64,000 nt of DNA from Microcoleus sp. Aus8_D2 (GCF_036702665.1 NZ_JAUBUN010000017.1:41769-105768), one strand, 5' to 3'; positions 29,416-54,631 are shown, counted from the first letter of the stretch. Notes: generated from the letters alone by a model not told the origin. Program-made: numbers and translations.

Positions 29416-32400
29416 ATGAAATTGATTAAGCGGACGGCTCTTTATTTTCAGGACGGTCGATCGGATAAAGTATACGAAGTCGATTTGTGTCAAACCGGCG
29501 AAAACCTCTACTCGGTCAACTTTCGCTACGGACGGCGGGGCGCCAATCTCCAGGAAGGCACAAAAACCGATACACCAGTGCCCTTGGCCAAAGCTGAAAA
29601 AGTTTTCGACAAGCTAGTCGCGGAAAAGGTAAAGAAAGGCTATCAGGAAGCAGCCAGCGTTGCTGATGTTGCACCCGCGCCAGAACTTCCTCGCGCCGAG
29701 ACGCGCCAACAAGCTATTTTGAACCGTCTTGCCGGCGCTGGCAATCCTAAATGGCCTCTGGAACGGGCTATTTGGCGCGCTGGGGAGCTGAAAATTACCG
29801 AAGCCGGGCCGGGACTGATTAACTTAATCGGTACGGGAGAACCGCTGCGAGACTACTGTATTGCTTGGAGTTTGGGTTGGTGCGGCGGCGAGGGCGCTGT
29901 GGAGGCGCTGACTCGGCTGTATCGGGATGCTGCGACTGCGGAGTTTGTGAGGAGAATTGCTTTTGAAGGATTGCTGAAGTTGGCGGATGAGGAAGCGCGA
30001 TCGCACCTAGAATCGTCCATAATAGAATTGCTACCCCCACAGTTGCGCGAATTAGCTGCAAACGGCAGCGCTGAGGAATTTTCAGCAGCATTGAAAGTTG
30101 AACTCGACACGGAAGATAGCAGTCGTTTTGCGGTTCTCGATCGACTTTACCAGATTGACAGTCAGTTTGTGCGATCGGCATTACTGGATATCTTAAAAAC
30201 TGCACCGCTAAAACCCCATTATTTTAAACAAATCCGCCACATCTTCAAAATGGCGGAATACCGTCGCGACGCCGAAGTATTTGCGATTGTGGCCCGCCGC
30301 TTTGAGGACGAAAAAGCCATGTACCGCAGCAATGCTTGGTATATTAACATTCCTGGTGGCGGGTATCTGACAAAGCAAGACTGGGCGTACAACGAACAAA
30401 CAGGCAAAAATGAATACACTGCAAACAGCAGTTTTCTAGAGGAAATGCAGAGTCCCAATTGCCGAATTGCCTACAGCAGCAGTACGCGCAGCTACTTAAT
30501 TAAAAGGGTGTGGCGCACTCTCAAACAATTAGGCGAAGAAAGCGATGCTGATTATGTAAAAATGGCTGTCAGCATTTTGCTGCAATACGTTGATAGCGAT
30601 GCCGAAGCAGTTTTGCAGATCACTTATTATCAGTGGATTCGCTCTAAGGGGACTAGCGATGCTGATTATCAATGGGATTTCTCTAATTGGAATAAAATCA
30701 GTTATTCATCTGAATGGGATATCTTTGCCGGTTACTTAACATTTAACCGCATTCTCTACGAAAACAGCCCGCGCTATGCTTATTTTACCAATTCGCAAGC
30801 GTGGCGCTGCAGAGAAGGTTACAAACCAGGAGATCCGGAGCCGGAAGTGCGAGAAGAAGCTTTTCCCGAACTTTGGGAACAATATCCCGATGCGCTGTTG
30901 CAATTGTTATTAGCCAGCAACTGCCGCCCGGTGCACCATTTCGCTGTGAAAGCGCTGAAAGCTTGTCCGCAATTTTTAGCTGGGATAGATGCTGACACTG
31001 CAATCAAACTGATTGCTGTACCTTACGAAGTTACAGCCGAACTGGGTTTCAATTTGGCAGTCCAAAACGGATATCATCGATATCCAGCCCACCGCGAAGT
31101 AATTCTAGGGCTGGTTAACTGCATATTTGTGCCAGCGAGAACCCAAGCTTTTGACTGGATTGACGAACAGCGCGATCGCATTTTATCAGATACAGAATTA
31201 ATTGTTACTCTAGTAACCAGCTTGTACGCAGACACCAGGCAATTTGCCCGCAGGTTGCTCAACTCATCAATTCTCAGCCCTGCAACCGTCAGGCTACTAA
31301 TTGGCAAACTGATAGCCCATTTATTAACATTTCAACCAACAGAATTCATTCCGACTCATACCTCAATTGTAGCCAAAGACATCGCCGATACGCTCCTGCT
31401 CAACTTTACCCCACAACTGCGGAGTTTGGGATTGGGAGTTATCCTGGATTTGCTGCGGCATCCGGTGCCGGAAGTTCAGGAATTGGGGGCGAGAATTTTG
31501 CTGAATCACGAAATCGGTGCGGCTGATTTGCCGTCTGAATTAATCGAATCGCTAATTGCGTCGCCCTACGAACAAATTCGAAGAATTGGCATCAGGTTAT
31601 TCGGTCAATTACCGGACGAATCGCTAACAAGTTCTCAGACAAGTTTGATAGTAGGAATGGCAGTCAATGCTTTGGCCGACATCCGCAATTCTATTAAACC
31701 AGTAATTCGGCGTTTGGCCGCCGAATATCCCGAATTTGCAGCGCTGGTTGCTGGGGAATTGATTGATGTGTTGCTGATACCGGAAAGACAGGAAGGAGTA
31801 CACAGTTATTTGCTCGATTTGCTGCGGCAAGATATTCCGGGGTGGATGTCGGCGATGGATAAGGACAAGACTTGGCTGCTGCTGAAAGCTAAGTCTGCTG
31901 TCGCGCAGGAATTAGGCGGATTTGTGCTGGTGAAAAATAGCACGAATTGGGCGGCGGAGTTTGATACAATTGAGATTGTCAAGCTGGCGAGTCACGAGAT
32001 TTTTTCGGTGCGAGAATCTGCGAGACAAATGTTTTTGCAAAAGCTAGATGCGATTCGCGCCAATTCTCAAGAAATGCTGTCAGCCGTGCGGCTGCTGGAG
32101 GCAAAATGGGATGATTCGCGGGAATTTGCCGCCAGGATTTTTCGCACGGAATTGACTGAGGCAGATTGGACTCCGGAAATTATGGTTAGTCTTTGCGACA
32201 GCATTCGGGAAGATGTGCGGCAATTCGGCAGAGATTTGGTAATTCGCTATTTTCAGGATGAGTCCGGACACGATTATTTGCTGAAGTTTAGCGAGCATCC
32301 GTCGGCGGATATGCAGTTGTTTGCTACTAATTATTTGGAGAGTTATGCTGCAAGCAATCCTGAGAAATTGCGGGAATTAGCGCCTTTTTTGGTCGCGGTT

Positions 32401-32640
32401 TTGTCGCGGGTGAATCAGGGAAGGGTGGCGAAGCGCCGAGTTTTTGCGTTTCTGGATGCGGAGGCGCAAAAGAGTGAGGCGGCGGCCGGGATTGTTGCGG
32501 ATATTTTAACCAGGCAATCGGCTACAATTGCGATCGCAGATAAAGCAGCGGCTATTGAGACTATGCTGAAGATTCGCCGGCGTTATCCTCAGATAGATTT
32601 GCCAATTCAGGTAAAGCCTGTGGTTGAGGTGAGGAGTTGA
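29416..32640 (+). CDS. WGR-domain protein with long HEAT/ARM-like helical repeats and probable DUF4132-type C-terminus (MolR-like), 1074 aa
   Basis: N-terminal WGR: RTALYFQDGRSDKVYEVDLCQTGENLYSVNFRYGRRGANLQEGTK...AEKVFDKLVAEKVKKGYQE. Remainder is alpha-helical repeat. Confidence 0.75.
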   Translation: MKLIKRTALYFQDGRSDKVYEVDLCQTGENLYSVNFRYGRRGANLQEGTKTDTPVPLAKAEKVFDKLVAEKVKKGYQEAASVADVAPAPELPRAETRQQAILNRLAGAGNPKWPLERAIWRAGELKITEAGPGLINLIGTGEPLRDYCIAWSLGWCGGEGAVEALTRLYRDAATAEFVRRIAFEGLLKLADEEARSHLESSIIELLPPQLRELAANGSAEEFSAALKVELDTEDSSRFAVLDRLYQIDSQFVRSALLDILKTAPLKPHYFKQIRHIFKMAEYRRDAEVFAIVARRFEDEKAMYRSNAWYINIPGGGYLTKQDWAYNEQTGKNEYTANSSFLEEMQSPNCRIAYSSSTRSYLIKRVWRTLKQLGEESDADYVKMAVSILLQYVDSDAEAVLQITYYQWIRSKGTSDADYQWDFSNWNKISYSSEWDIFAGYLTFNRILYENSPRYAYFTNSQAWRCREGYKPGDPEPEVREEAFPELWEQYPDALLQLLLASNCRPVHHFAVKALKACPQFLAGIDADTAIKLIAVPYEVTAELGFNLAVQNGYHRYPAHREVILGLVNCIFVPARTQAFDWIDEQRDRILSDTELIVTLVTSLYADTRQFARRLLNSSILSPATVRLLIGKLIAHLLTFQPTEFIPTHTSIVAKDIADTLLLNFTPQLRSLGLGVILDLLRHPVPEVQELGARILLNHEIGAADLPSELIESLIASPYEQIRRIGIRLFGQLPDESLTSSQTSLIVGMAVNALADIRNSIKPVIRRLAAEYPEFAALVAGELIDVLLIPERQEGVHSYLLDLLRQDIPGWMSAMDKDKTWLLLKAKSAVAQELGGFVLVKNSTNWAAEFDTIEIVKLASHEIFSVRESARQMFLQKLDAIRANSQEMLSAVRLLEAKWDDSREFAARIFRTELTEADWTPEIMVSLCDSIREDVRQFGRDLVIRYFQDESGHDYLLKFSEHPSADMQLFATNYLESYAASNPEKLRELAPFLVAVLSRVNQGRVAKRRVFAFLDAEAQKSEAAAGIVADILTRQSATIAIADKAAAIETMLKIRRRYPQIDLPIQVKPVVEVRS

Positions 32641-38154: not shown

Positions 38155-38278
38155 ACTGGAAAATAGGGCAACTGCCAAAACGGTTAGGACGTTCTTAATT
38201 GCACAAACATAACCTGAAGATTCCTTTTTCCTTTACAATTCAAAATCTAAAATCCAAAATCCAAAATCCAAAATCGAT

Positions 38279-39676
38279 ATGACTGACCAGCCGCGCACTC
38301 GCCAGGAATTGTACGATCGCATCCGTTCTAGCAGCAAACAAGAATTCATTCTCGAAGAAATGATCCGCCTCGGTTTCTGGCCCGCACAAGGCGAAATTCC
38401 CCAAGATCCGGCCGACGAAATTCGCCGCATCGGGGAAATTCAGCGAGAACTAGGCGAACTGCGCAGGGAAAGTTCGCGGCTGCAAAACGAGAAAGCACTC
38501 CGCAAGGAAATGCTGCAACAGCGGCTTGCCGAATCCCGGCGCAAACGGCAGGAAACTAAGGAACGCCGGGAAAGAGAACGGCAAGAACGCGCTGAGAATT
38601 GGCGGCAAAAAAAACAGCAAGAAATTAGCTATCTCGGTGACGGTGTATCTGCGGGACTCGATCGCACAAACGGCAATGTAGAACGCTTGCAAAGCTATCA
38701 GTTACCGCTTGGCAATACAGCAGCAGAAATAGCAGCGGCGATGGACATCAGCATCGGACAATTGCGGTTTCTCGCTTTTTCCCGCAAAACTTCCCATATT
38801 TCCCACTACATCCGGTTTAAAATACCCAAGAAAACTGGCGGAGAAAGACTCATTTCCGCACCGATGCCCCGCCTCAAAAAAGCACAGCACTGGATACTTG
38901 CCAACATTCTCGAAAAACTCGAATTGCACGGCGCGGCACAGGGTTTTCGATCGCATCATTCAATTGTCACCAACGCTCAACCTCATGTAGGTTCGGAAGT
39001 TATTATCAACTTCGACCTAAAAGACTTTTTTCCCTCAATTTCGTACAGGCGAGTTAAGGGGCTTTTTCAATCTTTTGGATATTCCGAAGCTGGCGCCACA
39101 ATCTTCGGATTGTTGTGTACGGAACCGGAGGTTGAAGAATTGGAATTAGACGGCAAAACTTACTTTGTCGCAGTTACAGAACGCCATTTGCCCCAAGGTT
39201 CTCCCGCAAGTCCAGCGATTACTAATTTGCTGTGCCGCCGCCTCGACAAGCGCTTAACTCAAATGGCTCAGGAATTGGGATTTGTTTACACCCGCTACGC
39301 TGACGATTTGACATTTTCGGCATCGGGAGACAGCTTGCAAAACATTTGTAACGTACTCAGGCGCACGGAGGCGATCGTTATTCATGAAGGATTTAGCATT
39401 AACGAACAAAAGACTCGGATATTGCGAAAAAATCGGCAACAAGAAGTTACGGGAATAGTGGTCAACGAGCAACTGAGTATTTCCAAGAAAGTGTTAAAAC
39501 GCTTCCGCGCAGCTTTATTTCAAATCCAGAAAGACGGGCCTGAGGGGAAGCGGTGGGGGAATTCGACTGATGTTTTAGCATCGATTCAAGGTTTTGCTAA
39601 CTTTGTAGCAATGGTAAATCCCGAGAAAGGTGCAGAATTTATCGAACAGGTGAAAGCCATTAAAAATAAATGGTAA
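38279..39676 (+). CDS. ret: Retron-type reverse transcriptase with ~150-aa N-terminal coiled-coil extension (465 aa)
   Basis: Alignable to retron-Ec86 RT: KIPKKTGGERLISAP (motif 1/2), HHSIVTNAQPHVGSEVIINFDLKDFFPSI (NAxxH + motif A), LPQGSPASPAITNL (B'), YTRYADDLTFS (C) and QQEVTGIVVN (retron VTG motif). The core equals residues ~140-465. Five copies of the octamer AAAATC(C/T) sit directly upstream of the ATG. Confidence 0.85.
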   Translation: MTDQPRTRQELYDRIRSSSKQEFILEEMIRLGFWPAQGEIPQDPADEIRRIGEIQRELGELRRESSRLQNEKALRKEMLQQRLAESRRKRQETKERRERERQERAENWRQKKQQEISYLGDGVSAGLDRTNGNVERLQSYQLPLGNTAAEIAAAMDISIGQLRFLAFSRKTSHISHYIRFKIPKKTGGERLISAPMPRLKKAQHWILANILEKLELHGAAQGFRSHHSIVTNAQPHVGSEVIINFDLKDFFPSISYRRVKGLFQSFGYSEAGATIFGLLCTEPEVEELELDGKTYFVAVTERHLPQGSPASPAITNLLCRRLDKRLTQMAQELGFVYTRYADDLTFSASGDSLQNICNVLRRTEAIVIHEGFSINEQKTRILRKNRQQEVTGIVVNEQLSISKKVLKRFRAALFQIQKDGPEGKRWGNSTDVLASIQGFANFVAMVNPEKGAEFIEQVKAIKNKW

Positions 39677-39748
39677 TATCGCCCTGCTAAATTTTGTAGT
39701 GAGGACTTCAGTCCTCTGTATCGGTGTCTGGGAATCATACCATAGATC

Positions 39749-39862
39749 TCTTGCAAAAGTCTTTTAGATCGAATTTTGGAACGGGCAAGATGCCCATTCC
39801 ACAGAAAAAAATATTTTTGTGGAACGGGCATCTTGCCCGTTCCTAACTATTTTTGCAAGAAG
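39749..39862. other. Structured element downstream of the RT: short inverted repeats (tcttgcaaaag / cttttgcaaga) flanking a ~32-bp-stem hairpin (ggaacgggcaagatgcccattccacagaaaaa / tttttgtggaacgggcatcttgcccgttcc). Candidate ncRNA or dispersed hairpin repeat.
   Basis: Read directly. The hairpin core GGAACGGGCAnnnTGCCCRTTCC is related to the 14547..14700 repeat, so a generic repeat origin is equally plausible. Confidence 0.3.
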
Positions 39863-40052
39863 TCTCATTTATAAAAGTCTTGTTACAACATAATTGTTCG
39901 GTGGAGTGAAACGGAGGGTTGTTGACTTAACCTGGATGCACAGGTGCGGATCTATAGAGATTGTCGATTTTATACAGCATAATTTTTGAGATATCCGCAC
40001 CCTGCGGTTGCTCAAGTCGTGACTGCAAACAAGTTTTATTGTTTGCCTAAAG

Positions 40053-41048
40053 CTACTCTTGCTTTCTCAGAGTAGAAGCTCTTTTAGCGATGCGAATTAA
40101 ATATCTCGGCGACATCTCTTTATCGACAGTAATGCGAGAAATGCGGTAGTTATTTTCCAGTCGGTTTACTCTGAATAAACGGTCATCGTACAAAAAGCCT
40201 GTTAAATGATATTTAGGCAAAATCTGTTCAACTTCCCCGTCTGATGCGCCGTAGGGGTAGGCGATGTGAGCGCCAATTACTTTATTTTTGTCTAAATCTC
40301 CCATACATTTTCTCAATTCTGACTTAGATTTAGCAATTTCAAATTCTAATTCTTTGCCGTTGATTTGAGTTAAGTTTTTGTGAGTAAAGCCGTGAGACTG
40401 AACATCATAAAAACCTTTTTTGTATCCGTCTCTTAAATCATTGCAAGTAGTGTGTGGTAAAAAATCTCTCCCCATATCAACACCTAAAAAGTGCGGGTTG
40501 ACAAATAACACAAATTTCCCTTTTTGTTTGTAACTAAGGGACAGTTTTTCCAAGATAGGAAGTGCATTTTCATGAACGCCTTTATACCCGTCGTCAAAGG
40601 CGATCATAATCGGTTTTTGACCAATTTTTTGAGCTGGTATTGGCTGCGACTTGTCGATAAAGTATACGTACAAGTCTTGAGATGATAACAGCCAATAGTT
40701 TTCTTTAATTAGATATTCTAAAAAAACTGACAAATCTTGTTTTGTGTAGTCAATGGAGAAAGCAAGCCGCTTCGGTGGCAATTCGGCGGGATTTTGAGTG
40801 TCTACAATATCGTGAAAGCCGATTATGGGGATTCTGATGAAATTAGATTCTACTGTCCAGCCAGAAATACCTATACAGATGGTAAATATCAGCAATAAGT
40901 AAATCGGTTTGGCTTTGTGTATCACCCGAAATAGAAATTTTATCATATTTTTTACGTTTTTTAACAATTGTTCGCTCATTGTTTTATTATCAATCTGTGT
41001 GTTCTTCATCTTTACCACTAATAGACCCAAATTCAGCAAGGTTGACAT
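40053..41048 (-). CDS. Polysaccharide deacetylase (NodB homology) family protein with N-terminal TM anchor
   Basis: NodB motifs MIAFDDGYKGV (TFDDG-like) and QSHGFTHKNL (His motif). N-terminal hydrophobic helix PIYLLLIFTICIGISGW. Confidence 0.7.
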   Translation of the reverse strand: MSTLLNLGLLVVKMKNTQIDNKTMSEQLLKNVKNMIKFLFRVIHKAKPIYLLLIFTICIGISGWTVESNFIRIPIIGFHDIVDTQNPAELPPKRLAFSIDYTKQDLSVFLEYLIKENYWLLSSQDLYVYFIDKSQPIPAQKIGQKPIMIAFDDGYKGVHENALPILEKLSLSYKQKGKFVLFVNPHFLGVDMGRDFLPHTTCNDLRDGYKKGFYDVQSHGFTHKNLTQINGKELEFEIAKSKSELRKCMGDLDKNKVIGAHIAYPYGASDGEVEQILPKYHLTGFLYDDRLFRVNRLENNYRISRITVDKEMSPRYLIRIAKRASTLRKQE

Positions 41049-41267
41049 TTTTTTGCTATTTATTTGGAATATAGGTAGAGTGTGTGATGCAGCAGTTGGC
41101 GCAGCTATCGAAGAGGAGGGCTGCGATCGCTAAGGAAGAGTGAGCCAAATTGAGTGCCAGGGCCGACAATGCGCTATAATCGGGGCTGGCGCGAGTGTTA
41201 CCGCCGTCGATTGAGGGTTGCAATGCCAGAAATCCGTTGACGAGTACGCGAAGGTCGATCGTACTTT

Positions 41268-41903: not shown

Positions 41904-43331
41904 TTAACCTTGACCTATGATTAATTCTGGCTGTGATTCTAGTGCGGTTTGTTCTGGTGGGATTCCCAAAATATCGCTGTACAAGTTGACATATTTTATG
42001 GCAGAAATATCCCAGCCAAAATCTTCTTTCATGCCGCGTTTTTGCAGTTCTTTCCACTTATCTTTGTAGCGGAAACCTTCCCAGGTTCGGATCATGCAGG
42101 TGAACAAGTCGAGGGGTTCGTAGCGATCGAAACAGTAGCCTGTGCCGGTATCATTAATCGGGTCGTTGTGAGATACGGTATCGACTAAACCGCCCGTGCG
42201 GCGCACCATGGGGACGCAGCCGTAGCGGAGGGCGAGCATTTGGCTGATGCCGCAGGGCTCGAAACGGCTGGGCATTAGGAAGGTGTCGCAGCCTGCGTAA
42301 ATGCGCCGGGAGAGGGCGTCGTTGTAGAGTAATTGGGTGGACATCCGGCCGGGATAGCGGGCGGTCATTTGCCAGAGTTGGGTTTCGTAGTAGCGATCGC
42401 CAGTTCCGAGTACAATAAACTGAGCGTCGGTATAGGCCATGAAGCGATCGAGCATTTGAATGATCAAATCCAATCCCTTCTGTTCTACCAGCCGCGTGAC
42501 CATGCCGATTAACAGGGCATTTTTATTCACTTCCAAACCGACTTCTTCTTGCAGCGCGATCTTGTTGGCTGGGCGTTTTTCAATAGTATCAACACTAAAT
42601 TGTTGATGGAGGTATCTGTCAGTTTCTGGGTTGTAAGATTCTGTATCAATTCCGTTCAAAATGCCTGATACTTTGCCGCCGAGGAAAGATAGCAAACCTT
42701 CCAAAGTTTCCCCGTAAGCTGGGGTTTTGATTTGTTCGGCGTAGGTGGGCGAAACTGTATTTACGCGATCGGCAAACTGTACTGCCGCAGCCATTGTATT
42801 GTGACCTTGCATATACCAAGGACACCAAGTCATCTGCTCCAAACGCCAGCGCCACGGCCCTTGATAAGCTAAATTGTGAATAGTAAAAACCGTGCTGATA
42901 TCGGGGTCTTGGCTCATCCAAACAGGTATCATCCCCGTATGCCAATCGTGACAGTGCATAATTTGGGGTTTCCAGTGATTCCAGGCAAATTCAGCAGCAG
43001 TATTAGCAAAGAAAGTGAATCTCCAATCTTCATCGACGCCGCCGTAAACGCGGCGGGGTAAGAAAGATGGATGTTGCATTAAGTATAAAGGTACATCCGT
43101 GCCCGGCAAAACACTTTCAAAGACGGAGAAGCTTTGGAACATGGCCTCCCCATTCCAAACGGGTTTTTTGGGAACGTCCATTTTGTCGGGGATGAAGCCG
43201 TAGTAGGGCATGAAGATGCGGACATCGTGACCCATGCGGCGCAGAAATTTAGGCAAAGCGCCGACGACATCGCCCATACCGCCTACTTTGGCTAGGGGTG
43301 CTGCTTCGGCGGATACAAATAAAATGCGCAT
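41904..43331 (-). CDS. glgA: Glycogen synthase (ADP-glucose type)
   Basis: [30 protein letters not shown] (KVGG motif), GT5 + GT1 domains, 475 aa. Confidence 0.9.
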
Positions 43332-43550
43332 TATTTTTTTGTGTTCCTTGGGATAGTTAGTCTAGATCAAGTTTAAATGGCGAGGGACACAATATTAACG
43401 CGGTGTGCAAAAAAAACGGAGATACCTACGAAGAAGCTCTCAAGAATGCACTAGAGGTATAAGAGCTTTTAGTCGAAGAATATCAGGTAGACCGTAAATC
43501 TCTCTCAAAACCTAAAACGATCGCAGAAAACCTACTATTTGCTTGAACCG

Positions 43551-43576
43551 CGATAAAAGGGCGATCGCCTTTTTAT
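43551..43576. terminator. HIP1 palindrome hairpin (aaaagggcgatcgccttttt) with flanking T/A runs, candidate terminator for the MVP gene
   Basis: Located ~110 bp past the MVP stop on the minus strand. Symmetric, so it could act in either direction. Confidence 0.35.
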
Positions 43577-43681
43577 CCATCCACGTCCATCTGCGGTAAA
43601 AAAAAGAGCGTGAAGCGCAGCTATCGTCCGCTGGAATCGCCCCCAAGGAAAAACCGAACTTAGCATTGAGAATTAACCTAT

Positions 43682-46318
43682 TTAATTCCCCGGCAATTGC
43701 TGATTCTGGGCCACAGAACCAATCAAACCCAGAGCCGTGCTAAATAAATTAATCGGATTTTTGCCATCAGTAATTAACACACTTTGAAGTCCCAACGACT
43801 GCAAAAGTTTAGCCTGCATTTCCGGCCCCGCTTGTGCCATTGCTTTCAAAGTTTCCGGCCCGATCGCCTCTACTTTTTGACTAAATTCCGCACTGGTAAT
43901 TTCCGCCATCCGCTGCGCTTTCTCAATTTCCAAATTATTCAACATTTGTTGGTGCGCTAATTCTGCCTCCTGTTTGGCTATCATTTGCGCCAATTCTCCC
44001 TCAGCGCGAATTCTGGTCGCCTCCGCTTCTTGCTGTGCCAAATTCACTGCTAATTCACCTTGAATTATAGCAGATTCTGCCTTCGCTCTCGCTTCTGCTG
44101 TAGCGTGTCCAGTAGATTCGATTGCCGCATTTTCTGCCTGCAATTCTAACAGTTTTTTGCGTTCGGATTCTGCCGCACTTCTATCTACAATTGCTTGGCG
44201 TTCCAGTCTAGCTTTTGCCTCTTGTTCGATTCTGGCTGCATCGTGTCGCGCGGCAGCTTCTTGAGCATCGGTGGTAATTTGAATGGCAATTTGCACCGAC
44301 TTTTGCAAACTTTTTAAAGTTGCTTCATCGATGGGTTCCACTGACTGAATGTCAATGTTAGTGATGACTAAACCATTGGTTTTAAACCGGAATTCATCGC
44401 CGATGCGACCTTCCTCACCTATCCCAAATACAGCCTGACGGATAATTCGCGCCGAATTTCGGTGAAACTCGTCAAATTTTTCGCCCGCGACTGAACCCCG
44501 CACCCGAGATGCGATCGCCTTACAAGCATCTCCTACAAAATCCGGCACTTGAAACAGTTTCGCCGCCGCTTGTTCGTCGTGGCGATCGACATCAAAATAC
44601 CAGTTATAAGATAGCTTAATTTGCAATCGAGCGTGGTCAGAGGTTTCCACTGTAAAAACATCAGTCATAAAATCCGGCCCTAACAATAATGCCAAAGATT
44701 TAATTGTATTCGGCCGTTTTGGTTTCCCTGCTGATAAACGGAGAACTGTAAATGCTTCGTCGGGGCCAAGCATCACTAAATCCGGCCCGAATATAGTGCG
44801 TGCAGTTCGATTTTTGTAGTCATGAATTTGCACTACTGAATTTTGAGGAACGTGATAGACAACTGCTTTGGTTCGATCCCGAACTAGAACGGTTCCTGGT
44901 GTTTCTTCAGAACGTACCAAACCGCGATCGAACATCCGATCGCTCTTTTGCGCTAACAATTCTTCAACAACTGCGGGTAATTCTTTTTCCCAAAGTTGTT
45001 CGTAGGGAGTCAACATATATGCCTGCGGCCCGCCAACTAATTTGAGTTCTCCTGTTTGGATGTCCCGCACGTAAATGCCTTCATTCTTATCCAAAGGAAT
45101 AGCTTTGCGCTTTTCCACGACTTCTACTTCAACGCGGGGAATGTAATCTCGCGGCCCGGAAATCATCCACAAATCACCCGGCTGGTGAGAGATTAAATTG
45201 TCGCTTTCACCTTCATCAAAAGCTTCTCTTGCTCTCAATAACAGCGCTTCTTGTTCGCTGAGAACGTAGACTTTTTGAATGCCTCCTTCTAAAGATTCAC
45301 CTGGGTGCAGGAAAAAAGAAGCTCTTCCCTGACGGACTTCTTTCATTCCCAACTGCGGTTTGTGTTCTGCATCGATCGGATCGAGGACAATGCACCATTC
45401 GCGATCGCTCAAAGTTGTAATCTCTACTTCTCCTACAACTTCTTCATACACGTCGGGAATGTGAATTTCTGCATCTTCGATCGTCACCAACCATTCATCG
45501 CCCGCTTTTCTTTGCCGTCCGAAGATATCAGAAAAAGTCCGTTTCGCCTTCAAATGCAGAGCTTTCCGTTCCGTTAAAACGCAACCATTAATTACGCCGA
45601 CAACCTCTTCATCTACTCCAGGTAAATAAGCGCCTTCTTCTCTCACCAACCATTCCTCACCAGCGCGGCGGCGATTTCCTTGTCTGTCAGTACAAGATTG
45701 TCGCGTTATCAATCGCAAGGCTTGATTGGCTTTGATTACTTGAGATCTAACTATTTCTACAACTTCAACCTCCACACGGGGGAGATAAGTTCCCGGCCCT
45801 TCAAACAGCCATTCATCGCCAGCTAAACGGTTAATTGTTTGAGTCTGGGATTGTGCTTGTTCGCCCCTCGCCACAGGGGAACTATCCGCAAAATCTCGCA
45901 GTGCTTTGAGACGCAGTGCTTGATTAGTTTCCACTACTTGCAAGCGGGTAACATCTCCTGCCAATTCTTCCCCAGGATATAGCGGAAAAGGTTCTTGAGC
46001 GAAGCGAATTTCTGCGTCGCCGTACCGCAGTTTAATTTGTCCGTGAGGGTCAGCAATTGGTTGATTTTCTTGATTTCGCAGCACGGGATTGACAACAATG
46101 CAATAGTGGCGCGGCGGCACAACAATCATCGGTTCGGGCTTTAAAATTAAGCGTTCGTGGTCGCGCAATGTAATTGTTTGCGGCCCAACTTCCTGTTTGG
46201 TAACGCCAGTATTGTTGTCGAGAACATGAATGAATTGCTGGGGCTTTAGGCGAATTACGCCGCCAGAAATTCCGAGCGTGTCAGCTTTACTTTCACGTTT
46301 GAGTTCGCTTGTATTCAT
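43682..46318 (-). CDS. Major vault protein (MVP) homolog, 878 aa
   Basis: About nine tandem ~53-aa vault repeats (recurring ...GPxTYxPxxxEEVVxxxxAxxLxxxxALxLxAxxxF... e.g. [43 protein letters not shown]). SPFH/band-7-like shoulder region follows, then an Ala/Glu-rich cap-helix coiled coil ([24 protein letters not shown]...). Length matches eukaryotic MVP. Confidence 0.75.
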
Positions 46319-46544
46319 GATTTTAATAGTTAGCTATGTGTATGCAGCCTTGCGGCCGATTAAGATGCGACTGACACGAGTACGGTACTTTAGATGCGTT
46401 AAGTTATGTCGATCCTAATCGCTCTTTGCTAGTTGTTAAAAACTTGTAATATATTTTAAAATGTTGCAGTAAAAAAATGAAGCTACTGCAAAAATTAATA
46501 ATAGGTAATGGGTAATTTGAAAGTATTGAATAATGACTGCTGAC

Positions 46545-46680
46545 TGCTGATAACAATCAACAATCAACAGTCAACAGTCAATAGCTAACAATTAACAATT
46601 ATAGCCGTTATCAAAAAAGTGAGGTATGCCCACGGAGGCCACGGAGGCCACGGAGGCCACGGAGGCCACGGAGGCCATGA
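46545..46680. repeat. STRR block: heptamers (CAATCAA/CAGTCAA x ~6) followed by nonamer GGCCACGGA x 5
   Basis: caatcaacaatcaacagtcaacagtcaatagctaacaatta and ccacggaggccacggaggccacggaggccacggaggccacggaggcc, read directly. Confidence 0.9.
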
Positions 46681-46714
46681 GTACCTCATCTTTCGCTGGA
46701 AAGGCTATAACTGA

Positions 46715-47554
46715 CTATTCCTCATCAGGCTCACCCTCAAAAGTTTCTTCAAATCCAGCTAAAAAGTCATCCAAAGCAACGGAGGCGATCGCCAAATTAA
46801 TACTATCAGCATCTTCCAACCCCCACGTATTCACCCCAACAACTTGACCGGCCATATTAATCAACGGGCCGCCCGAATTTCCCGGATTAATCGCCGCATC
46901 AGTTTGCAACACCTTCACCTCAGCAATATCATCATCATCTTCGTCGCCTTCCTCATACTCATCGGGTTCGCGAATTTCACTAATAATACCCTGAGTTACC
47001 GTTGCCGCCAACTGGCCCAAAGGATTTCCCACAGCAATTACTCGATCGCCAACTTTCACATCAAAAGACAACTCTAGGGGAGGATATTCTTCGGGAGATT
47101 CTACTTGTTCTCCTGTTTTCGGATCGATGATAAAACCAGTAATCAAAAGCAATGCTAAATCCTCTTCCGCATTACCAGTAAATACCACCTCTGCCATTCT
47201 CAACTTTCCGTCGTGAGTTTCGACTAAAACCTGTTCGACTTCATCTTCCTCGTAGAAGTAATCTTCATCGGCAATATCTTCGACAACGTGATAGTTAGTG
47301 ACAATTATGTCGGGGGATACAAAAAAGCCGCTTCCGGAGGAAATCTCTTCTCCTGTATCCCAATCCATCACGTAAACTGAAACTACCGAGGGCAAGACTT
47401 GCTCGACTACATCGGAAAAGTTTCCCGTCTGGCTTTTAAACTCTTTCAATTGCTGCTGCAAAGCTTTTCGATCTGCCTGCATTTTGCGATAAAGTTGCTG
47501 AAATTTTGCCAATTCTAGCTTTAATTGAGTTTCCTGAGCGCTCATATTTTGCAT
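46715..47554 (-). CDS. Trypsin-like (S1/HtrA-type) serine peptidase domain protein with N-terminal coiled coil and acidic inserts, no PDZ
   Basis: Catalytic triad context: TNYHVV (His), DLALL (Asp), GNSGGPLIN (Ser). Same strand and immediately upstream of the MVP gene. Confidence 0.7.
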   Translation of the reverse strand: MQNMSAQETQLKLELAKFQQLYRKMQADRKALQQQLKEFKSQTGNFSDVVEQVLPSVVSVYVMDWDTGEEISSGSGFFVSPDIIVTNYHVVEDIADEDYFYEEDEVEQVLVETHDGKLRMAEVVFTGNAEEDLALLLITGFIIDPKTGEQVESPEEYPPLELSFDVKVGDRVIAVGNPLGQLAATVTQGIISEIREPDEYEEGDEDDDDIAEVKVLQTDAAINPGNSGGPLINMAGQVVGVNTWGLEDADSINLAIASVALDDFLAGFEETFEGEPDEE

Positions 47555-47901: not shown

Positions 47902-48873
47902 TTATGAACCGCGTTGAACTTCGACAAATATTTCCTCTAAAATTGCACTGGCTCCCTGGGCGCGCAGGCGGTGGGCGAGGTCTATTCCCAGCATTTCAGC
48001 AGTCTCGGCTGCGCCGGAAACAGTATCTTTGACGAATCGCTGGCCGTCGAGACTGGATACCATGCCGGTTAAGGTTAATTGACCGTTTTCTATTTTGGTA
48101 TTGACGCCGATGGGTACTTGACAGCCGCCTTCTAATTCCCGCAGAAATGCGCGTTCAGCATAACATCTTTGGGCGGTTTCGGAGTGTTCGAGAGCTTTAA
48201 TTACTGCCATGATTTCTGTGTCTCCGGCGCGGCATTCGATGCCCAAAGCACCTTGTCCGACGGCGTGGAGGGAGATTTCAGGAGCGATAATTTGGTGGAT
48301 GCGATCGCCCATTCCCAATCTTTCGAGTCCGGCGACTGCTAGAATAATCGCGTCGTAACCGCCATCATCTAATTTAGCGAGTCGAGTATTGAGATTGCCG
48401 CGAATATCTTTGAATACAAAATGAGGGAAATGGTGCCGCAGTTGAGCCAGCCTGCGCAGGGAAGAAGTGCCGATTACGGAACCTTCTGGGAGGGTGTCGA
48501 GTTGCTTGTCTTTGTGCTTGGAGTGAACTACGAGGGCGTCAGCGGGATTTTCCCGTTCGGTGACGCATCCTAAAATTAAACCTTCGGGTAAATTGGTAGG
48601 CAAATCTTTGAGGGAATGAACGGCAAAGTCCGTTTCGTTGTTCAGCATTCCCGTTTCTAATTCTTTGGTGAAAAGTCCTTTATCGCCAATTTTAGCGAGG
48701 GCGACATCAAGAATTATGTCCCCTTGGGTGGACATGGTGTGGACTTCAAAAGTGTGTTCCGGGAAGTGTTTCTGTAGCTCTGCTTGCACCCAGTGGGTTT
48801 GAACGAGGGCGAGTTGGCTTTTGCGAGAACCGATGCGGACGGTTCGGGAAGGGGCAGATGTGGTTGGGGACAT
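47902..48873 (-). CDS. hemC: Hydroxymethylbilane synthase (porphobilinogen deaminase)
   Basis: [14 protein letters not shown], dipyrromethane cofactor region GGCQVPIG, 323 aa. Confidence 0.9.
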
Positions 48874-49484: not shown

Positions 49485-50519
49485 TTAACGTTGTCCTGCT
49501 TGAAGTGCAGAATTTACAATCGCAACAACATCTGACTGCCGTCCATTTTTGACACTTACTCGATACAGCACCCCCAGCCTTTGCCACTCCACAGAAGCAG
49601 TGCAGTAAGCACCGCAACTATTGAAATAAATTCCTCTGATTCCGCCTGCCAATTCAATGCTTCTATAAATATCTCTGGGCAATTGTGAAGGAGGCGAAAA
49701 CGGTTCATCTCTTTTCGCTTCGATGCTGCCAAAAGTACAGGCTCCTCCACGGCATCCTTTGCCTAAATACATTTCAACAATGTAGCCGTGGGAACCCGCT
49801 TGCACATCAAAATCTAGTTGCTGAGTGTCAGATAAAGGCAGTATATTGGGGAGGAAAATAGGGACTCGCGTTTTGCCTTTGATTTGCTGAAAGATGTTGT
49901 TCGCAGGAAAACGATTTTTAGCTTGATTTGCACCTGACTTATCGGGAATTGGGGGGAACTTTTGGACAAAATCTATCCACTGCAAAACTCTATTTTTACT
50001 AACGTTCAGAGTGGGAATATAATATTTTTCTACGGCAATAGAAGGGCGACCCTTGTTAAGGTCGAAGTTGCGGCGAATGACTGTATTTTCCGGTTTGCCT
50101 AATCCGTAAGTTGCGGCTGTGGAGCGGGCTCTCTGGCAGCTAATTTTGAAGCTTCCCATGTCAATGTTGCCATTTTCGGCTTGGTAAGACCAATTGTAAC
50201 CTTCAGAAGTCCGATCGCGATCGCACAAAAAACGCGAAATCTCAAACATCTTGGCAATATGAACGTCGTAGGGGCGCAGCTTGCGGCTGCTAACAGATTG
50301 TGCAGTATTGCGATCGGGCACAATAAATTGGATGGATTGCCAGCCATCTTTGGAGGTATAATTAAACCAGCGAATTTCGGTCACAGACACTTCTGGACGT
50401 GCTAGCGCGGAGTTGGGCGTCAAAAGTGCGATCGTCAAAGCAGTCCCCACACCAGCAAAAATCGCCCCAAATAGCCATCTTCCCCTCATCCTAATTTCCC
50501 TCTCAGTAGGTAAGCGCAA
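49485..50519 (-). CDS. Secreted/membrane-anchored protein of unknown function with a conserved 4-Cys C-terminal domain (paralog of 50691..51266)
   Basis: N-terminal signal/anchor WLFGAIFAGVGTALTIALL. C-terminal ~150 aa collinear with the neighbour: KGKTRVPIFLP...GACTFG...LAGGIRGIYFNSCGAYCTASVEW...KNGRQSDVVAIVNSALQAGQR. Confidence 0.5.
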   Translation of the reverse strand: MRLPTEREIRMRGRWLFGAIFAGVGTALTIALLTPNSALARPEVSVTEIRWFNYTSKDGWQSIQFIVPDRNTAQSVSSRKLRPYDVHIAKMFEISRFLCDRDRTSEGYNWSYQAENGNIDMGSFKISCQRARSTAATYGLGKPENTVIRRNFDLNKGRPSIAVEKYYIPTLNVSKNRVLQWIDFVQKFPPIPDKSGANQAKNRFPANNIFQQIKGKTRVPIFLPNILPLSDTQQLDFDVQAGSHGYIVEMYLGKGCRGGACTFGSIEAKRDEPFSPPSQLPRDIYRSIELAGGIRGIYFNSCGAYCTASVEWQRLGVLYRVSVKNGRQSDVVAIVNSALQAGQR

Positions 50520-50690: not shown

Positions 50691-51266
50691 TTAGCGTTTC
50701 CCAGCTTGAATAGCAGAATTTGCAATCTTAATTACATCTGCTTCCAGTCCGTTTTTAAGGGCTACAGTATACATAAAACCCTGAGTTTTCCACTCAAGAC
50801 TTGCCGTACAGTAAGCCCCGCAACCGTTGTGAAAATTTCCTTTCACTCCGCCCGCAAGTTGAACAGTTTTTAACGTCTTAGTTACCCCTTCCATTTTAGT
50901 AGAAAACTCACCACCTTTTTGACCTCTAATTTCCCCAAGAGTGCAAGCTCCCGTACCTTTGCAATCTGCTGTAAACTCCATAGAAACACTATAGCTGTCG
51001 GGTTTACTTTGGGTTTGATAGTAAAGTTTCTGCGAAACAGGAACCAAGCTGGGGATAAAAATTGGCACTTGTGTTTTACCTTTTAACTTTGGCAAAATTT
51101 CACTGACCGGCACAGCAGCATCAGCTTGAGCAACAGGCTTTGTTTCCGCCAGCATCTGCGGCAATGATCCCGCACCAAAAACTTGCGATACAGGTACCAA
51201 AGCAGTCAATACGCAGGCAGAAGTCGCCAAAAGTAATAATTTATTGTTCACTATTTTTGTCCTCAA
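50691..51266 (-). CDS. Secreted protein of unknown function, short paralog sharing the 4-Cys C-terminal domain
   Basis: Signal peptide LLLLATSACVLTALVPVSQVFGA. KGKTQVPIFIP...GACTLG...LAGGVKGNFHNGCGAYCTASLEW...KNGLEADVIKIANSAIQAGKR. Confidence 0.5.
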   Translation of the reverse strand: MRTKIVNNKLLLLATSACVLTALVPVSQVFGAGSLPQMLAETKPVAQADAAVPVSEILPKLKGKTQVPIFIPSLVPVSQKLYYQTQSKPDSYSVSMEFTADCKGTGACTLGEIRGQKGGEFSTKMEGVTKTLKTVQLAGGVKGNFHNGCGAYCTASLEWKTQGFMYTVALKNGLEADVIKIANSAIQAGKR

Positions 51267-51443: not shown

Positions 51444-52529
51444 GTGGAACTGCAAGAGTATTTACGCCAGCACGGATTAGAAACTTTGTGCGAAACTTAT
51501 CATATCAAAGTTACCCGCCACCGCCAATATCCCGATTTAGTCTGTCTGAAATACTCGCAGATAGAATCCCCGCTGGGCGAAAAAATAGTCCAGCAGTGCC
51601 GGGGCATTATTTTAGATGAGTCTCAAGATTGGCAGATTGTTTCTTATCCCTACGACAAATTTTTTAACTACGGGGAAGGCCACGCCGCAGCAATTGATTG
51701 GAGTCGCGCCAAAGTTTACGAAAAACTAGACGGTTCTCTAACTGTACTGTATTTTTATAACGGAGAATGGAGAGTGCAATCTAGCGGCACTCCCGATGCA
51801 GCGGGTGAAGTTAACGGTTTTGGATTCAGCTTTGCCGAACTATTTTGGAAAGTCTGGCAAGAATTGGGATATCAATTACCGGAAGCCACCGACGAGTGTT
51901 TTATCTTTGAGTTGATGACGCCTTACAATAGAATAGTTGTGCAGCAAAAAAATAATCAAATTGTCCTGCACGGGGTTCGCAACACTCAAACACTTCTAGA
52001 AACTGACCCCAGTATCTGGGCAAATAAATATGGCTGGGAGTTGGTAGCATCCTATCCTTTAACTAGCTGGAAAGAAGTTATCGAAGCGGCTCAACATTTA
52101 GATCCGATGGATTCGGAAGGGTATATTATCTGCGATGCTAACTTCAACCGAGTTAAGGTTAAGTCTCCGCAATATGTGGCGATTTCCCACCTTCGCGAAG
52201 GGTTTTCGACGCGGCGGATGATCGAAATTGTTTTGACTAATGAAGGAGAAGAGTTTTTAGCTTATTTTCCCGAGTGGATTGACTTGTATCAAAAAGTTAA
52301 GAGTAAATATGAATTGTTAGTTCAAGAAATCGAGGAGGTTTACCGACAGCACGAACATATCGAAGTTCAGAAAGATTTTGCGTTAGCTGTCAAGCATTTG
52401 CCGTATTCTGGGATTTTGTTTTCTTTGCGGGCTCGCAGGGTTGCCGGAGTGAAAGAAGCTCTCCGCGATGTTACGATTCATAAGATAGAGGAGTTATTGG
52501 GTTTGGATTATATCAATTTAGGTTTGTAA
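51444..52529 (+). CDS. ATP-dependent RNA ligase, T4 Rnl1-like
   Basis: Nucleotidyltransferase motif I YEKLDGSL (KxDG lysine). N-terminal region QCRGIILDE...YPYDKFFNYGE parallels T4 RnlA ECRGIMFE...RPMEKFFNLNE...LTKEDGSL. Confidence 0.8.
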   Translation: MELQEYLRQHGLETLCETYHIKVTRHRQYPDLVCLKYSQIESPLGEKIVQQCRGIILDESQDWQIVSYPYDKFFNYGEGHAAAIDWSRAKVYEKLDGSLTVLYFYNGEWRVQSSGTPDAAGEVNGFGFSFAELFWKVWQELGYQLPEATDECFIFELMTPYNRIVVQQKNNQIVLHGVRNTQTLLETDPSIWANKYGWELVASYPLTSWKEVIEAAQHLDPMDSEGYIICDANFNRVKVKSPQYVAISHLREGFSTRRMIEIVLTNEGEEFLAYFPEWIDLYQKVKSKYELLVQEIEEVYRQHEHIEVQKDFALAVKHLPYSGILFSLRARRVAGVKEALRDVTIHKIEELLGLDYINLGL

Positions 52530-52669
52530 ATACACTAATCGATGGTTTGCAGTCATATAAAGTAGAACTCCAAGCGAACTATTGTTTAAGGTGCGTCGCT
52601 ATGAGATTGTCGAGCTTGATTTAGAGCTTTTCGGCGGCGACGCACCCTACGGTGAAATACTATTCCCAA

Positions 52670-52730
52670 TGCCCAATGCCCTGCGCAAGCCAATGCCCTG
52701 CGCAAGCCAATGCCCAATGCCCAATTACCA
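52670..52730. repeat. Short tandem repeats (ccaatgccctgcgcaag x 2, caatgccca x 2)
   Basis: Read directly. Sits between the ligase and kinase genes. Confidence 0.8.
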
Positions 52731-52737
52731 ATTTACC

Positions 52738-53586
52738 ATGAAAAGAGTTATTGTACTTGTCGGCTTACCTGCTTCTGGAAAATCTCAATTTGCGAGAGAA
52801 TTGCTGCTGTCTGAACCTGCACGGTGGGTGCGTAGCAATAAAGATTTACTTCGAGAAATGGCTCACGCTTCTCATTGGTCTCCGGCGAATGAAAAGTTTA
52901 TTGTGCAGTTGAGAGATACGATTATTCTGATGGCTTTGGAAAGTGGCAAGCACGTGATTGTTGATGATACTAATTTCGGGCCTCACATCGAGCATATCAA
53001 GGAGTTGGTTAAGGGTAAAGCCATCGTGGAAGTTAATGATTCTTTCCTGCAAGTTCCGGTGGAGGAGTGTATTAAACGGGATTTGAAAAGACTTAATTCG
53101 GTGGGTAAAGATGTGATAATGAAAATGTACAATAAGTACGTGCGGGTTCCGGTTGCGCCGCCGGAATACAACCCGGATTTGCCGGATGCAATTCTTGTGG
53201 ATATGGACGGTACATTAGCGCTTCTCAATGGTAGAAATCCTTTTGATGCTTCAAAGTGCGATCGCGATTTACCGAATCAGCCCGTCTTAGATACCGTCCG
53301 CAAGTGGCAGTCTAGCGTTAATATTATCGTAGTATCGGGTAGAACCGATGACTGTCAACCTCAGACTGAACAATGGTTGCGGCAATACGAGGTCAATTAT
53401 GCAGGCCTCTATATGCGGAAAACTGGGGATATGAGGAAGGATGCGATTATGAAGGAGGAAATCTATCAGCAGCATATTGCAGGACAATATAATGTTAAGT
53501 TTGTATTGGACGATCGCCAGCAAGTTGTTGATATGTGGAGGTCGTTGGGATTGACTGTATTTCAAGTTGATGAAGGGGATTTTTAA
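52738..53586 (+). CDS. pnkp: Polynucleotide 5'-kinase / 3'-phosphatase, T4 Pnkp-like (N-terminal P-loop kinase, C-terminal HAD/DxDGT phosphatase)
   Basis: VLVGLPASGKSQFA (P-loop), ILVDMDGTLA (DxDGT), VVSGR, and C-terminus DMRKDAIMKEEIYQQHIAGQYNVKFVLDDRQQVVDMWRSLGLTVFQVDEGDF nearly superimposable on T4 Pnkp ...[52 protein letters not shown]. Start at ATG 52738. Confidence 0.85.
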   Translation: MKRVIVLVGLPASGKSQFARELLLSEPARWVRSNKDLLREMAHASHWSPANEKFIVQLRDTIILMALESGKHVIVDDTNFGPHIEHIKELVKGKAIVEVNDSFLQVPVEECIKRDLKRLNSVGKDVIMKMYNKYVRVPVAPPEYNPDLPDAILVDMDGTLALLNGRNPFDASKCDRDLPNQPVLDTVRKWQSSVNIIVVSGRTDDCQPQTEQWLRQYEVNYAGLYMRKTGDMRKDAIMKEEIYQQHIAGQYNVKFVLDDRQQVVDMWRSLGLTVFQVDEGDF

Positions 53587-54037: not shown

Positions 54038-54631
54038 GTGATGATAGCTATTCCCCAAGCACCCCAAAAAATGACCGTTGAGGAATATCTCGAATGGGAA
54101 GCTCAACAAGAGATTCGCCACGAATATGTCAACGGCGAAGTTTTTGCCATGACGGGAAGTACAATTCCCCATAACGATCTTGCACTTAACTTTTATACTG
54201 CATTACGCCCGCATCTGCGTTCCAGAGGTTGTCGGATGAACGTGTCAGATGTGAAATTGCAAGTCAGTTTTCAAAGCCGTTACTACTATCCTGATGTCAT
54301 AGTCAGTTGCGATTCTCAAGACTTGAATTCCCGCAAGTTTATTCAGAATCCTAAAATCATTGTGGAAGTTCTCTCCCCCAGTACAAGTGCTAAAGATCGG
54401 GATGAAAAATTCACTTGTTACCTGAAAATTCCGAGCTTGCAAGAGTATATCTTGATTGACTCAGAAAAAATCTCCGCTGAACGTTACTGTCGCGGAGAGG
54501 GCAGAATGTGGCTTTACTATGCTTACACTGCTGGGGAGATTATTACTTTATCAAGTATTGGGTTTGATTTGCCGATCGAACTTTTGTATGAAGGCGTTCA
54601 ATTTGAAACAGAAACAGAAACAGAAACGTAA
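54038..54631 (+). CDS. Uma2-family (DUF820) putative endonuclease
   Basis: MTVEEYLEWEAQQEIRHEYVNGEVFAMTG...PDVIVSC...IIVEVLSPST is the classic Uma2 PD-(D/E)xK pattern. C-terminus ETETET comes from a gaaaca hexamer repeat. Confidence 0.7.
   Translation: MMIAIPQAPQKMTVEEYLEWEAQQEIRHEYVNGEVFAMTGSTIPHNDLALNFYTALRPHLRSRGCRMNVSDVKLQVSFQSRYYYPDVIVSCDSQDLNSRKFIQNPKIIVEVLSPSTSAKDRDEKFTCYLKIPSLQEYILIDSEKISAERYCRGEGRMWLYYAYTAGEIITLSSIGFDLPIELLYEGVQFETETETET

Follow-up and report, generated by a model that had tools for sequence, protein, structure and literature searches.

The 64,000-nucleotide stretch of Microcoleus sp. Aus8_D2 analysed here (GCF_036702665.1, NZ_JAUBUN010000017.1:41769-105768; below, the window) carries on its minus strand a gene for an 878-residue protein that is a true, full-length major vault protein (MVP) homolog with the full eukaryotic architecture, located in a cyanobacterial chromosome. 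We consider it likely that this is a bona fide, functional and native MVP, encoded by a stand-alone gene and predicted to self-assemble into a vault-like cage, and that the protease gene upstream of it is unrelated. The protein is a member of an already described clade whose existence was known: cyanobacterial MVPs were described in 2013 (PMC3762200), analysed in 2019 (10.1101/872010) and used in 2023 (10.1101/2023.11.10.566534), and the novelty implied by the first-pass annotation of the window was thus overstated. Since such genes have been public for over a decade, the window adds context rather than a discovery, namely a clean presence/absence polymorphism in Microcoleus suited to comparative studies, a refuted link to the protease, a wider host range and a weak lead concerning STAND/TIR/WD40 neighbours. 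The gene neighbourhood of cyanobacterial MVP was not treated in those three papers, and a broad survey of the conflict systems that multicellular bacteria carry makes no mention of vaults.

Identity and native status of the 878-residue protein

The gene, the domains of its product (with borders that we take to be those of the rat structure) and the flanking genes are as follows.

43682..46318 (-): MVP homolog, 878 aa (open reading frame (ORF), Pfam, rat/human MVP structures, AlphaFold2 and Foldseek, dN/dS)
44678..46258 (-): nine vault repeats R1-R9, residues 21-547 (human alignment, model, 159-nt periodicity)
44330..44677 (-): SPFH-like shoulder, residues 548-663 (Pfam MVP_shoulder, human alignment, Foldseek)
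43862..44329 (-): cap-helix, residues 664-819 (human alignment, helix in model, composition)
43733..43861 (-): cap-ring, residues 820-862 (human alignment)
41904..43331 (-): glgA (glycogen synthase), flank downstream of MVP (Pfam Glyco_transf_5, synteny)
47902-48873 (-): hemC

The only Pfam families that match the protein at E<=0.01 are those of MVP: Vault in four stretches (E=7.7e-64), Vault_2 in two stretches, Vault_3 and Vault_4, with all of the repeat models exceeding their gathering scores, and MVP_shoulder, the full profile of which (1-118) was matched with E=2e-52. There was no match to Band_7 in Pfam, nor to any model of NCBIfam. Searched with phmmer against the Protein Data Bank (PDB), the protein aligned from end to end with rat MVP (7pkz_A, E=2.7e-302, query 20-872 on chain 6-855), human MVP (11dr_A, E=6.4e-302) and rabbit MVP, and the strength of these matches (E ~1e-302) excludes chance. 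Identity to human MVP is 56.8% across 841 aligned positions. Every position of R2-R9, the cap-helix and the cap-ring is covered in this alignment, together with 49 of 55 in R1 and 116 of 127 in the shoulder, and by domain the identity is 47-69% in the repeats, 68% in the shoulder, 51% in the cap-helix and 72% in the cap-ring (human 803-845), which makes the cap-ring the most conserved domain. The cap-helix aligns without gaps to human 647-802 and is rich in alanine (22%), glutamate (15%) and glutamine (10%). At the DNA level a periodicity of 159 nt (45484/45643/45802) reflects the 53-residue vault repeat.

Differences from the mammalian proteins are confined to a few places. The window protein has 14 extra N-terminal residues relative to eukaryotic MVP and, in R3, an insertion of 13 residues (148-151 and 155-163, about nt 45830-45877) that is specific to cyanobacteria and absent from mammalian MVP. 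The loop between R8 and R9 (residues 458-480) varies in length, corresponds to the variable stretch in an alignment of 31 cyanobacterial sequences and was modelled with low confidence.

An AlphaFold2 model built from 40 diverse sequences had a mean predicted local distance difference test score (pLDDT) of 81.8, with about 90 over the repeats and shoulder, and contained a repeat region rich in beta-strand followed by a single continuous helix at 665-819. (A run on the 31 near-identical cyanobacterial sequences gave a pLDDT of 43.9 and was set aside as uninformative.) When this model was compared with the PDB by Foldseek, the top 18 matches were all MVP (best E=7.6e-86), and next in rank were the SPFH cage proteins flotillin, HflK/C, prohibitin, erlin and stomatin (E 1e-6 to 1e-4). 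Crystal structures of R1-R7 matched with a TMt of 0.62; global TM-scores reached only 0.4-0.5, since as a lone monomer the long chain is bent in another way. Neither a transmembrane segment nor a signal peptide was found in the protein (maximum KD(19) 1.17). The first-pass annotation had proposed a full-length MVP homolog with about nine tandem repeats of ~53 residues, a band-7/SPFH-like shoulder and a long Ala/Glu/Gln-rich cap-helix, with glgA on its other side, and had advised a comparison of predicted and known MVP structures. As both the vault-repeat and the SPFH folds were found, that first observation stands, and the remaining elements were recovered by the analyses above.

The gene is native to the host chromosome and under strong purifying selection over its full length, with dN/dS of 0.07-0.11 against five relatives. 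Two of the 38 sites of the HIP1 sequence (GCGATCGC) in the window are within it (0.76/kb versus 0.59/kb across the window), its GC content is 0.466 versus 0.459 for the window, and its relative synonymous codon usage correlates with the window pool at r=0.81, the mean for other long ORFs being 0.66. The window also encodes the cyanobacterial marker families DUF1824 and DUF3386, and gene order in the flanks follows that of the complete Microcoleus vaginatus PCC 9802 genome, with 85-94% nucleotide identity. These properties bear on the question of an artefact. The match to human MVP (56.8% identity) is uncommonly close for a protein from a bacterium, as would be expected of eukaryotic contamination or a chimeric assembly, and a decaying relic would be a further possibility of the same kind; the embedding of the gene among cyanobacterial genes syntenic with a complete genome, its HIP1 sites, host-like codon usage and dN/dS of about 0.1, and an ORF intact across >120 protein clusters and 72 genome loci make any such explanation extremely improbable.

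Hardly more credible is a reading of the protein as TolA-like. Cyanobacterial MVPs are annotated as 'major vault protein' at JGI and as 'colicin uptake protein' at NCBI, a name that orthologs also bear in UniRef, and a compositional likeness between the cap-helix and TolA domain II has been noted (PMC3762200, 10.1101/872010); the name arises because the cap-helix is rich in Ala, Glu and Gln. We rejected it, given that no TolA family matched in Pfam (E<=0.01) or NCBIfam, that there is no N-terminal membrane anchor and that MVP is aligned over the whole length.

Relatives, host range and genomic neighbours

To place the window protein among known MVPs, an unrooted distance tree was computed from 53 sequences and 825 columns, its representatives being at most about 50% identical to each other by construction and taken from the top 150 of them, with no valid outgroup. 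One candidate, P0378, was rejected as a bacterial outgroup since it is a fast-evolving animal sequence (Intoshia), and the distant bacterial MVP-like proteins, absent from the top 150, were not used as one. All bacterial MVPs in the tree formed a single clade (200/200 bootstrap replicates) with short internal branches and 64-96% identity. Its members are 52-58% identical to human MVP, compared with 45-50% for the sampled non-bacterial representatives that could be named (Anaeramoeba, the sponge Corticium, the ciliate Platyophrya, the diplonemid Lacrimia, Salpingoeca, the cercozoan Apiculatamorpha and Intoshia). Since human MVP resembles the bacterial clade more than it does those eukaryotes, the bacterial lineage is slow-evolving and centrally placed, nested in no sampled eukaryotic group of this unrooted tree. 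A phylogeny had been suggested as a test of transfer from eukaryotes; it yielded one bacterial clade outside the sampled eukaryotic groups and, being unrooted, gives no direction of transfer. Published trees disagree, one having bacterial MVPs nested with Amoebozoa (PMC3762200) and another placing them at the base of the cluster of eukaryotes (10.1101/2023.11.10.566534).

A search of a collection of 5.8 billion proteins at E<=1e-10 returned 2566 homologs of the window protein, and the best 120 of the matched 90%-identity clusters were 73-96% identical and cyanobacterial where named. The exact window sequence was not found in the public protein collection. Bacterial MVP had been described as rare and patchily distributed, in agreement with a pattern-limited scan of 185,579 species-representative genomes, in which 72 MVP loci were detected. 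The cyanobacterial hosts include Oscillatoriales, Nostocales (Calothrix NIES-2100, Nostoc T09, Aulosira), Xenococcaceae, Prochloron and Spirulina. In addition, MVPs at 65-72% identity were identified on contigs binned as Thiomargarita/Parabeggiatoa and as Anaerolineae, Chloroflexaceae or Thermoflexales (L040, L041, L044, L045, L050, L065 and L068). The host range is consequently wider than the published 'Oscillatoriales only'. Those contigs have a host-like GC content (0.39-0.44; 0.53-0.67) and, among them, one HIP1 site on one contig, which implies that cyanobacterial-type MVP has spread between phyla among large filamentous bacteria, with hosts assigned by binning. A further host label, 'Actinomycetota' for locus L055, was rejected because that contig has a cyanobacterial HIP1 density and was probably mis-binned.

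Within Microcoleus the gene lies in a segment that is present or absent at a fixed site:

43417..46734 (.): MVP presence/absence segment, 3318 bp (blastn versus M. vaginatus PCC 9802)

The host of the window MVP is Microcoleus-like and closest to M. vaginatus, which is itself without MVP at this site. The segment comprises MVP with 416 bp upstream and 265 bp downstream and is replaced in M. vaginatus PCC 9802 (locus L073) by 501 unrelated bp, whereas the sequence aligns on either side of it (window 48999-46735 with L073 6544-8808, 89.5%; window 43416-41879 with L073 9310-10841, 90.9%). No MVP remnant, transposon-like terminal repeats or mobile-element scar was found at the M. vaginatus empty site, and the only sequence it shares with the window consists of HIP1-type palindromes. 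In a distance tree of hemC plus the protease, the shortest distance from the window was to M. vaginatus (d=0.093), with M. anatoxicus and Tychonema next, all three being MVP-less, and the MVP-bearing Prado104 (L001) and CSU_2_1 (L052) were on the other side of a 500/500 split. MVP directly follows the protease in all three MVP-bearing genomes of this set, and the nucleotide identity between the window and L001 is similar for MVP (86.7%) and hemC (87.4%). Given the same site, the split tree and the matching divergence, MVP is most simply read as ancestral here and lost later, with at least two losses in the Microcoleus lineage of a gene that probably stood downstream of the protease from the outset; repeated loss would make it a dispensable accessory gene.

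The co-oriented gene upstream of MVP had been described as encoding an S1-type protease with coiled-coil and acidic segments, and had been offered as a possible cargo or processing factor. The features concerned are these:

46715..47554 (-): PDZ-less S1C (HtrA-like) serine protease, 279 aa (Pfam, NCBIfam, triad motifs, orthologs)
46619..46633 (-): terminator-like hairpin and T-run downstream of the protease stop (consensus scan, weak)
46412..46439 (-): promoter-like site TTAACA-16-TAGGAT, about 94 nt upstream of the MVP start (consensus scan, weak)

The description was accurate. The protein matches Trypsin_2 (E=2.2e-29), has intact triad motifs (TNYHV at 86, DLALL at 132, GNSGGP at 225), a polar, coiled-coil-like N-terminus and one or more acidic inserts (21.9% D+E overall), and ends about 30 residues past the protease domain. 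No PDZ domain, transmembrane segment or signal peptide was found in it by Pfam, NCBIfam or sequence scan; its NCBIfam scores were 55-112 bits against cut-offs of 250-800 (e.g. 112 versus 416), and in PADLOC it matched RT-Protease_XI models only over their generic protease portion.

The proposed role did not hold up. That MVP and the protease form a functional module, with the latter as cargo or processing factor, would fit with their co-orientation 396 bp apart, with the same adjacency in three related genomes and with the unusual coiled-coil N-terminus and acidic inserts. Orthologs of the protease at 85-96% identity, however, occur in many named Microcoleus and Tychonema genomes, as opposed to MVP, which a species-level scan detected in few Microcoleus-like genomes, and the hemC-protease pair is kept without MVP: the order in M. 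vaginatus PCC 9802 is hemC - protease - glgA - DUF1824 - RNase III (rnc), identical to that of the window save that MVP is absent from the block, and in M. anatoxicus and Tychonema BBK16 hemC-protease is followed by other genes with no MVP alongside. Co-occurrence across genomes, a check that had been recommended, placed the protease upstream of MVP in only 3/72 loci, those of the closest relatives (L001, L052, L072). At one other locus, L035, the match was weak and partial and to another S1 protease, which lies downstream of MVP on the opposite strand, and no homolog was found in the remaining 68 within flanks of up to 10 kb. The terminator-like site behind the protease and the separate promoter-like site ahead of MVP point the same way, weak as this evidence is (13 promoter sites versus 7.4 expected in the region), and neither L001 nor L052 conserves the spacer. 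The protease is an unrelated resident neighbour paired with hemC and outside any MVP module, and a functional link between the two genes is most improbable.

The spacer itself is repetitive at 46460-46690. In it a 9-bp unit (GGCCTCCGT on the gene strand) is repeated perfectly in tandem, about five times, at 46630-46686, and short heptamer-type repeats (TTGACTG/TTGATTG, CAGCAGT) are also present.

No gene family recurs beside MVP across the 72 loci, and the MVP gene is stand-alone, without a conserved partner gene. An apparent neighbour family at 27 loci was rejected, as it consisted of two-component proteins joined by single linkage, and two-component genes were not enriched (2.3-2.8% near MVP versus 3.0-3.4% far from it). 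In Oscillatoria sp. PCC 10802, O. princeps and Oscillatoria Prado101 the gene directly downstream of MVP encodes an encapsulin, followed in L021 by its cysteine desulfurase:

L021 13267-16606; L023 13921-15363; L017 8060-9505 (MVP strand): type 2A encapsulin shell (SrpI-like, cNMP-binding domain, E~1e-116)

As this adjacency of two unrelated nanocompartment shell genes is limited to one lineage, it may be a coincidence.

Proposed cage assembly and ligands, and competing readings

If the window MVP behaves as its architecture predicts, it would self-assemble through the cap-helix, the cap-ring, lateral contacts between repeats and N-terminal waist contacts into a large, hollow, cytoplasmic, vault-like cage. 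A cage is inferred because the residues of the closed shell, a 78-mer (2 x 39) in the MVP family, are conserved: R9, N22, D39 and R42 of the waist are identical to human MVP and invariant in the 31 cyanobacterial sequences, and the cap-ring has the highest identity of any domain. Self-assembly is expected because eukaryotic MVP carries all of the information for building the shell; it alone encodes the vault shell, and human MVP made in E. coli self-assembles (PMC9778704).

Thirteen residues line the pocket for NAD+/ADP-ribose in the shoulder of human MVP (PMC12280208), and ten of these are identical in the window protein, with R504 replaced by K and H509 by N/H. With the pocket mostly kept and R511 changed to Ile, binding of adenine nucleotides there is plausible but unproven, and would form part of the mechanism we propose. 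PARP4, by contrast, would not be used by the cyanobacterial protein. Of the residues to which PARP4-MINT docks (human Q164, R169, Q172 and D214 in repeats R3-R5, which are vertebrate-specific; PMC12280208), Q172 is kept in the window protein, R169 is Lys, Q164 is Arg or variable, and D214 is Gly, as it is in 24/31 of the cyanobacterial sequences; it is the replacement of D214 that speaks against a use of vertebrate PARP4. No ORF with a TROVE, PARP catalytic, vWA or NACHT-WD40 domain was found in the 64-kb window, nor any vault RNA, there being zero Rfam hits of any kind. Likewise, no conserved non-coding element was found upstream of MVP, the spacer being unconserved in L001/L052 and without an Rfam match, and no PADLOC family matched MVP.

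Several observations weigh against a native, cage-forming MVP with this history. At the waist, I36 and N40 of the human protein are T and H in the window protein, and in the pocket R511, which binds the diphosphate in human MVP, is an invariant Ile in cyanobacteria. The human protein made in E. coli gave pseudo-spherical particles of 70-80 nm and not barrels (PMC9778704), so that a correct geometry on bacterial polysomes can only be presumed, and no report of a vault-like particle from any bacterium was found in the searched literature. The loss scenario, in turn, is drawn from a two-gene distance tree with midpoint rooting.

The E. coli result is also among the arguments for a true MVP homolog that does not form closed vaults and would instead serve as an SPFH-type scaffold, open or apposed to a membrane, or occur as irregular assemblies. 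Its shoulder and helix resemble those of the membrane-associated SPFH cages (flotillin, HflK/C, prohibitin, stomatin). Going by the title of a 2026 paper (PMC13100048), eukaryotic vaults are reportedly membrane-associated in situ. Against this, the window protein has no transmembrane segment or signal peptide, the parts that are specific to a closed, two-halved shell (waist and cap-ring) are the conserved ones, and purifying selection acts along the full length. We regard an open scaffold as unlikely, if the most serious of the alternatives, and favour the closed cage. A different question, compatible with a cage, is whether MVP partners with conflict proteins of the STAND/TIR/WD40/kinase type in an immune or NAD-linked role resembling that of TEP1, a TIR-like NADase-NACHT-WD40 protein. 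ORFs with NACHT, NB-ARC, WD40, TIR or Ser/Thr kinase domains made up 11/216 (5.1%) within 2.5 kb of MVP versus 3/234 (1.3%) beyond 5 kb (Fisher p=0.02-0.03), and examples from separate lineages lie directly upstream of it, co-oriented except for a CHAT protein:

L034 290-2815: TIRx3-WD40, immediately upstream of MVP, co-oriented
L006 2014-4911: NACHT-HEAT-NCC-H, immediately upstream of MVP, co-oriented
L009 7535-9535: NB-ARC-TPR, immediately upstream of MVP, co-oriented
L043 7374-9890 (also L047, L063); L064 6428-8809: Ser/Thr kinase-WD40, immediately upstream of MVP, co-oriented
L025 6501-8543: CHAT protein, upstream of MVP in Laspinema, opposite strand

Such a role would also accord with TEP1's action as an NADase and with the binding of ADP-ribose to the MVP shoulder (10.64898/2026.05.01.722283), the pocket being mostly kept here, and with the type XIII retron about 4 kb from the window MVP. 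Once one clade was collapsed, however, the enrichment fell to p=0.06-0.08; some nine of 71 analysed loci have conflict-type genes near MVP; more than 80% of loci, the window included, have no such neighbour within 2.5 kb; the architectures are heterogeneous and the families very abundant in filamentous cyanobacteria; and there was neither a PADLOC match for MVP nor a TROVE, PARP or vWA gene in the window. The STAND/TIR/WD40 neighbours are a weak lead and not a finding, and we think a conflict role improbable.

The question of what vaults do goes back to 1986. The cyanobacterial MVP family is known but experimentally unexplored, and a bacterial MVP without adjacent PARP4, TEP1 or vault RNA offers a minimal system for the role of the shell and the origin of the vault. 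The short-branched, central bacterial clade fits an origin of MVP, or a very early exchange, near the base of the eukaryotes. In a bolder and doubtful extension, cyanobacterial-type MVPs would form true cages in bacteria that are filamentous or multicellular and act with STAND/TIR/WD40 proteins in an NAD/ADP-ribose immune or stress pathway; if true, the eukaryotic vault (MVP and TEP1) would be descended from a bacterial conflict system or would share its ancestry.

Other features of the window and comparison with known systems

A number of other genes were annotated in the window.

4018-6681 (-): large ORF, 887 aa, no Pfam match
7282-8343 (-): small nSTAND1/AAA_16-type NTPase, far from MVP
18505-19755 (-): TnpB/IS605 OrfB element (Cas12f-like TNB domain), far from MVP
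29416-32640 (+): WGR and HEAT-repeat protein, 1074 aa
32855-34546 (+): large ORF, 563 aa, no Pfam match
38279-39676 (+): reverse transcriptase of a type XIII retron (PADLOC RT_XIII, E=6.5e-199)
40053-41048 (-): polysaccharide deacetylase
49485-50519 and 50691-51266 (-): two adjacent paralogous proteins, signal-like N-terminal segments, no Pfam match
51444-52529 (+): T4 Rnl1-type RNA ligase
52582-53586 (+): polynucleotide kinase/phosphatase (AAA_33/KTI12 and HAD_PNKP)
54038-54631: Uma2 nuclease

The retron reverse transcriptase and the deacetylase are within a second presence/absence segment (38164-41143), located between DUF1824 and RNase III, that measures about 3.0 kb as against 64 bp in M. 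vaginatus PCC 9802. Unlike their neighbours, these two genes have no HIP1 sites, which suggests a more recent arrival. The RNA ligase and the kinase/phosphatase look like an RNA-repair pair, and conservation of the pair extends to M. vaginatus, M. anatoxicus and Tychonema. The two adjacent paralogs have in common a C-terminal motif, ...GG.(K/R)G...N.CGAYCTAS.EW..., and are conserved in M. vaginatus.

Among known systems, HtrA/DegP proteases (S1C) share with the window protease a trypsin-like S1C catalytic domain in which the His-Asp-Ser triad is intact, but the latter lacks PDZ and targeting sequences and has an acidic insert and a coiled-coil N-terminus. Encapsulins resemble MVP by function only, as self-assembling cytoplasmic shells, assembly of the MVP described here being predicted; they have the HK97 fold and usually an adjacent cargo gene, in contrast to the unrelated fold of MVP and its lack of a conserved adjacent cargo. 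The SPFH cage proteins (HflK/C, flotillin, prohibitin, erlin, stomatin) are alike in the structure of shoulder and helix and form large closed cages, but are 8-20% identical, membrane-anchored and without the nine vault repeats.

Closer in layout are the MVP-like proteins of Myxococcota, Bacteroidota and Herpetosiphon and the MVPs of gut phages, for which the same order of repeats, shoulder and helix has been reported (PMC3762200, 10.1101/872010, 10.1101/2023.11.10.566534); the distant bacterial MVP-like proteins are about 16% identical to cyanobacterial and about 25% to eukaryotic MVPs (PMC3762200). The cyanobacterial MVPs described by Daly (2013) and Sokolskyi (2019), such as those of Moorena/Lyngbya (F4Y3B4), Oscillatoria acuminata (K9TKX8) and Allocoleopsis/Microcoleus PCC 7113 (K9WB38), belong to the same clade as the window protein, which is 74-96% identical to over 120 protein clusters, and have the same architecture and the same mis-annotation. 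From the eukaryotic MVPs of rat, human and rabbit (PDB 4V60, 7PKZ, 9BW5, 9Z4W) it differs in its bacterial host, in the changes of D214 to Gly, Q164 to Arg and R511 to Ile, and in that its assembly is a prediction; it matches them in length class and in the order of the 12 domains, and has kept the polar network of the waist and most of the shoulder pocket.

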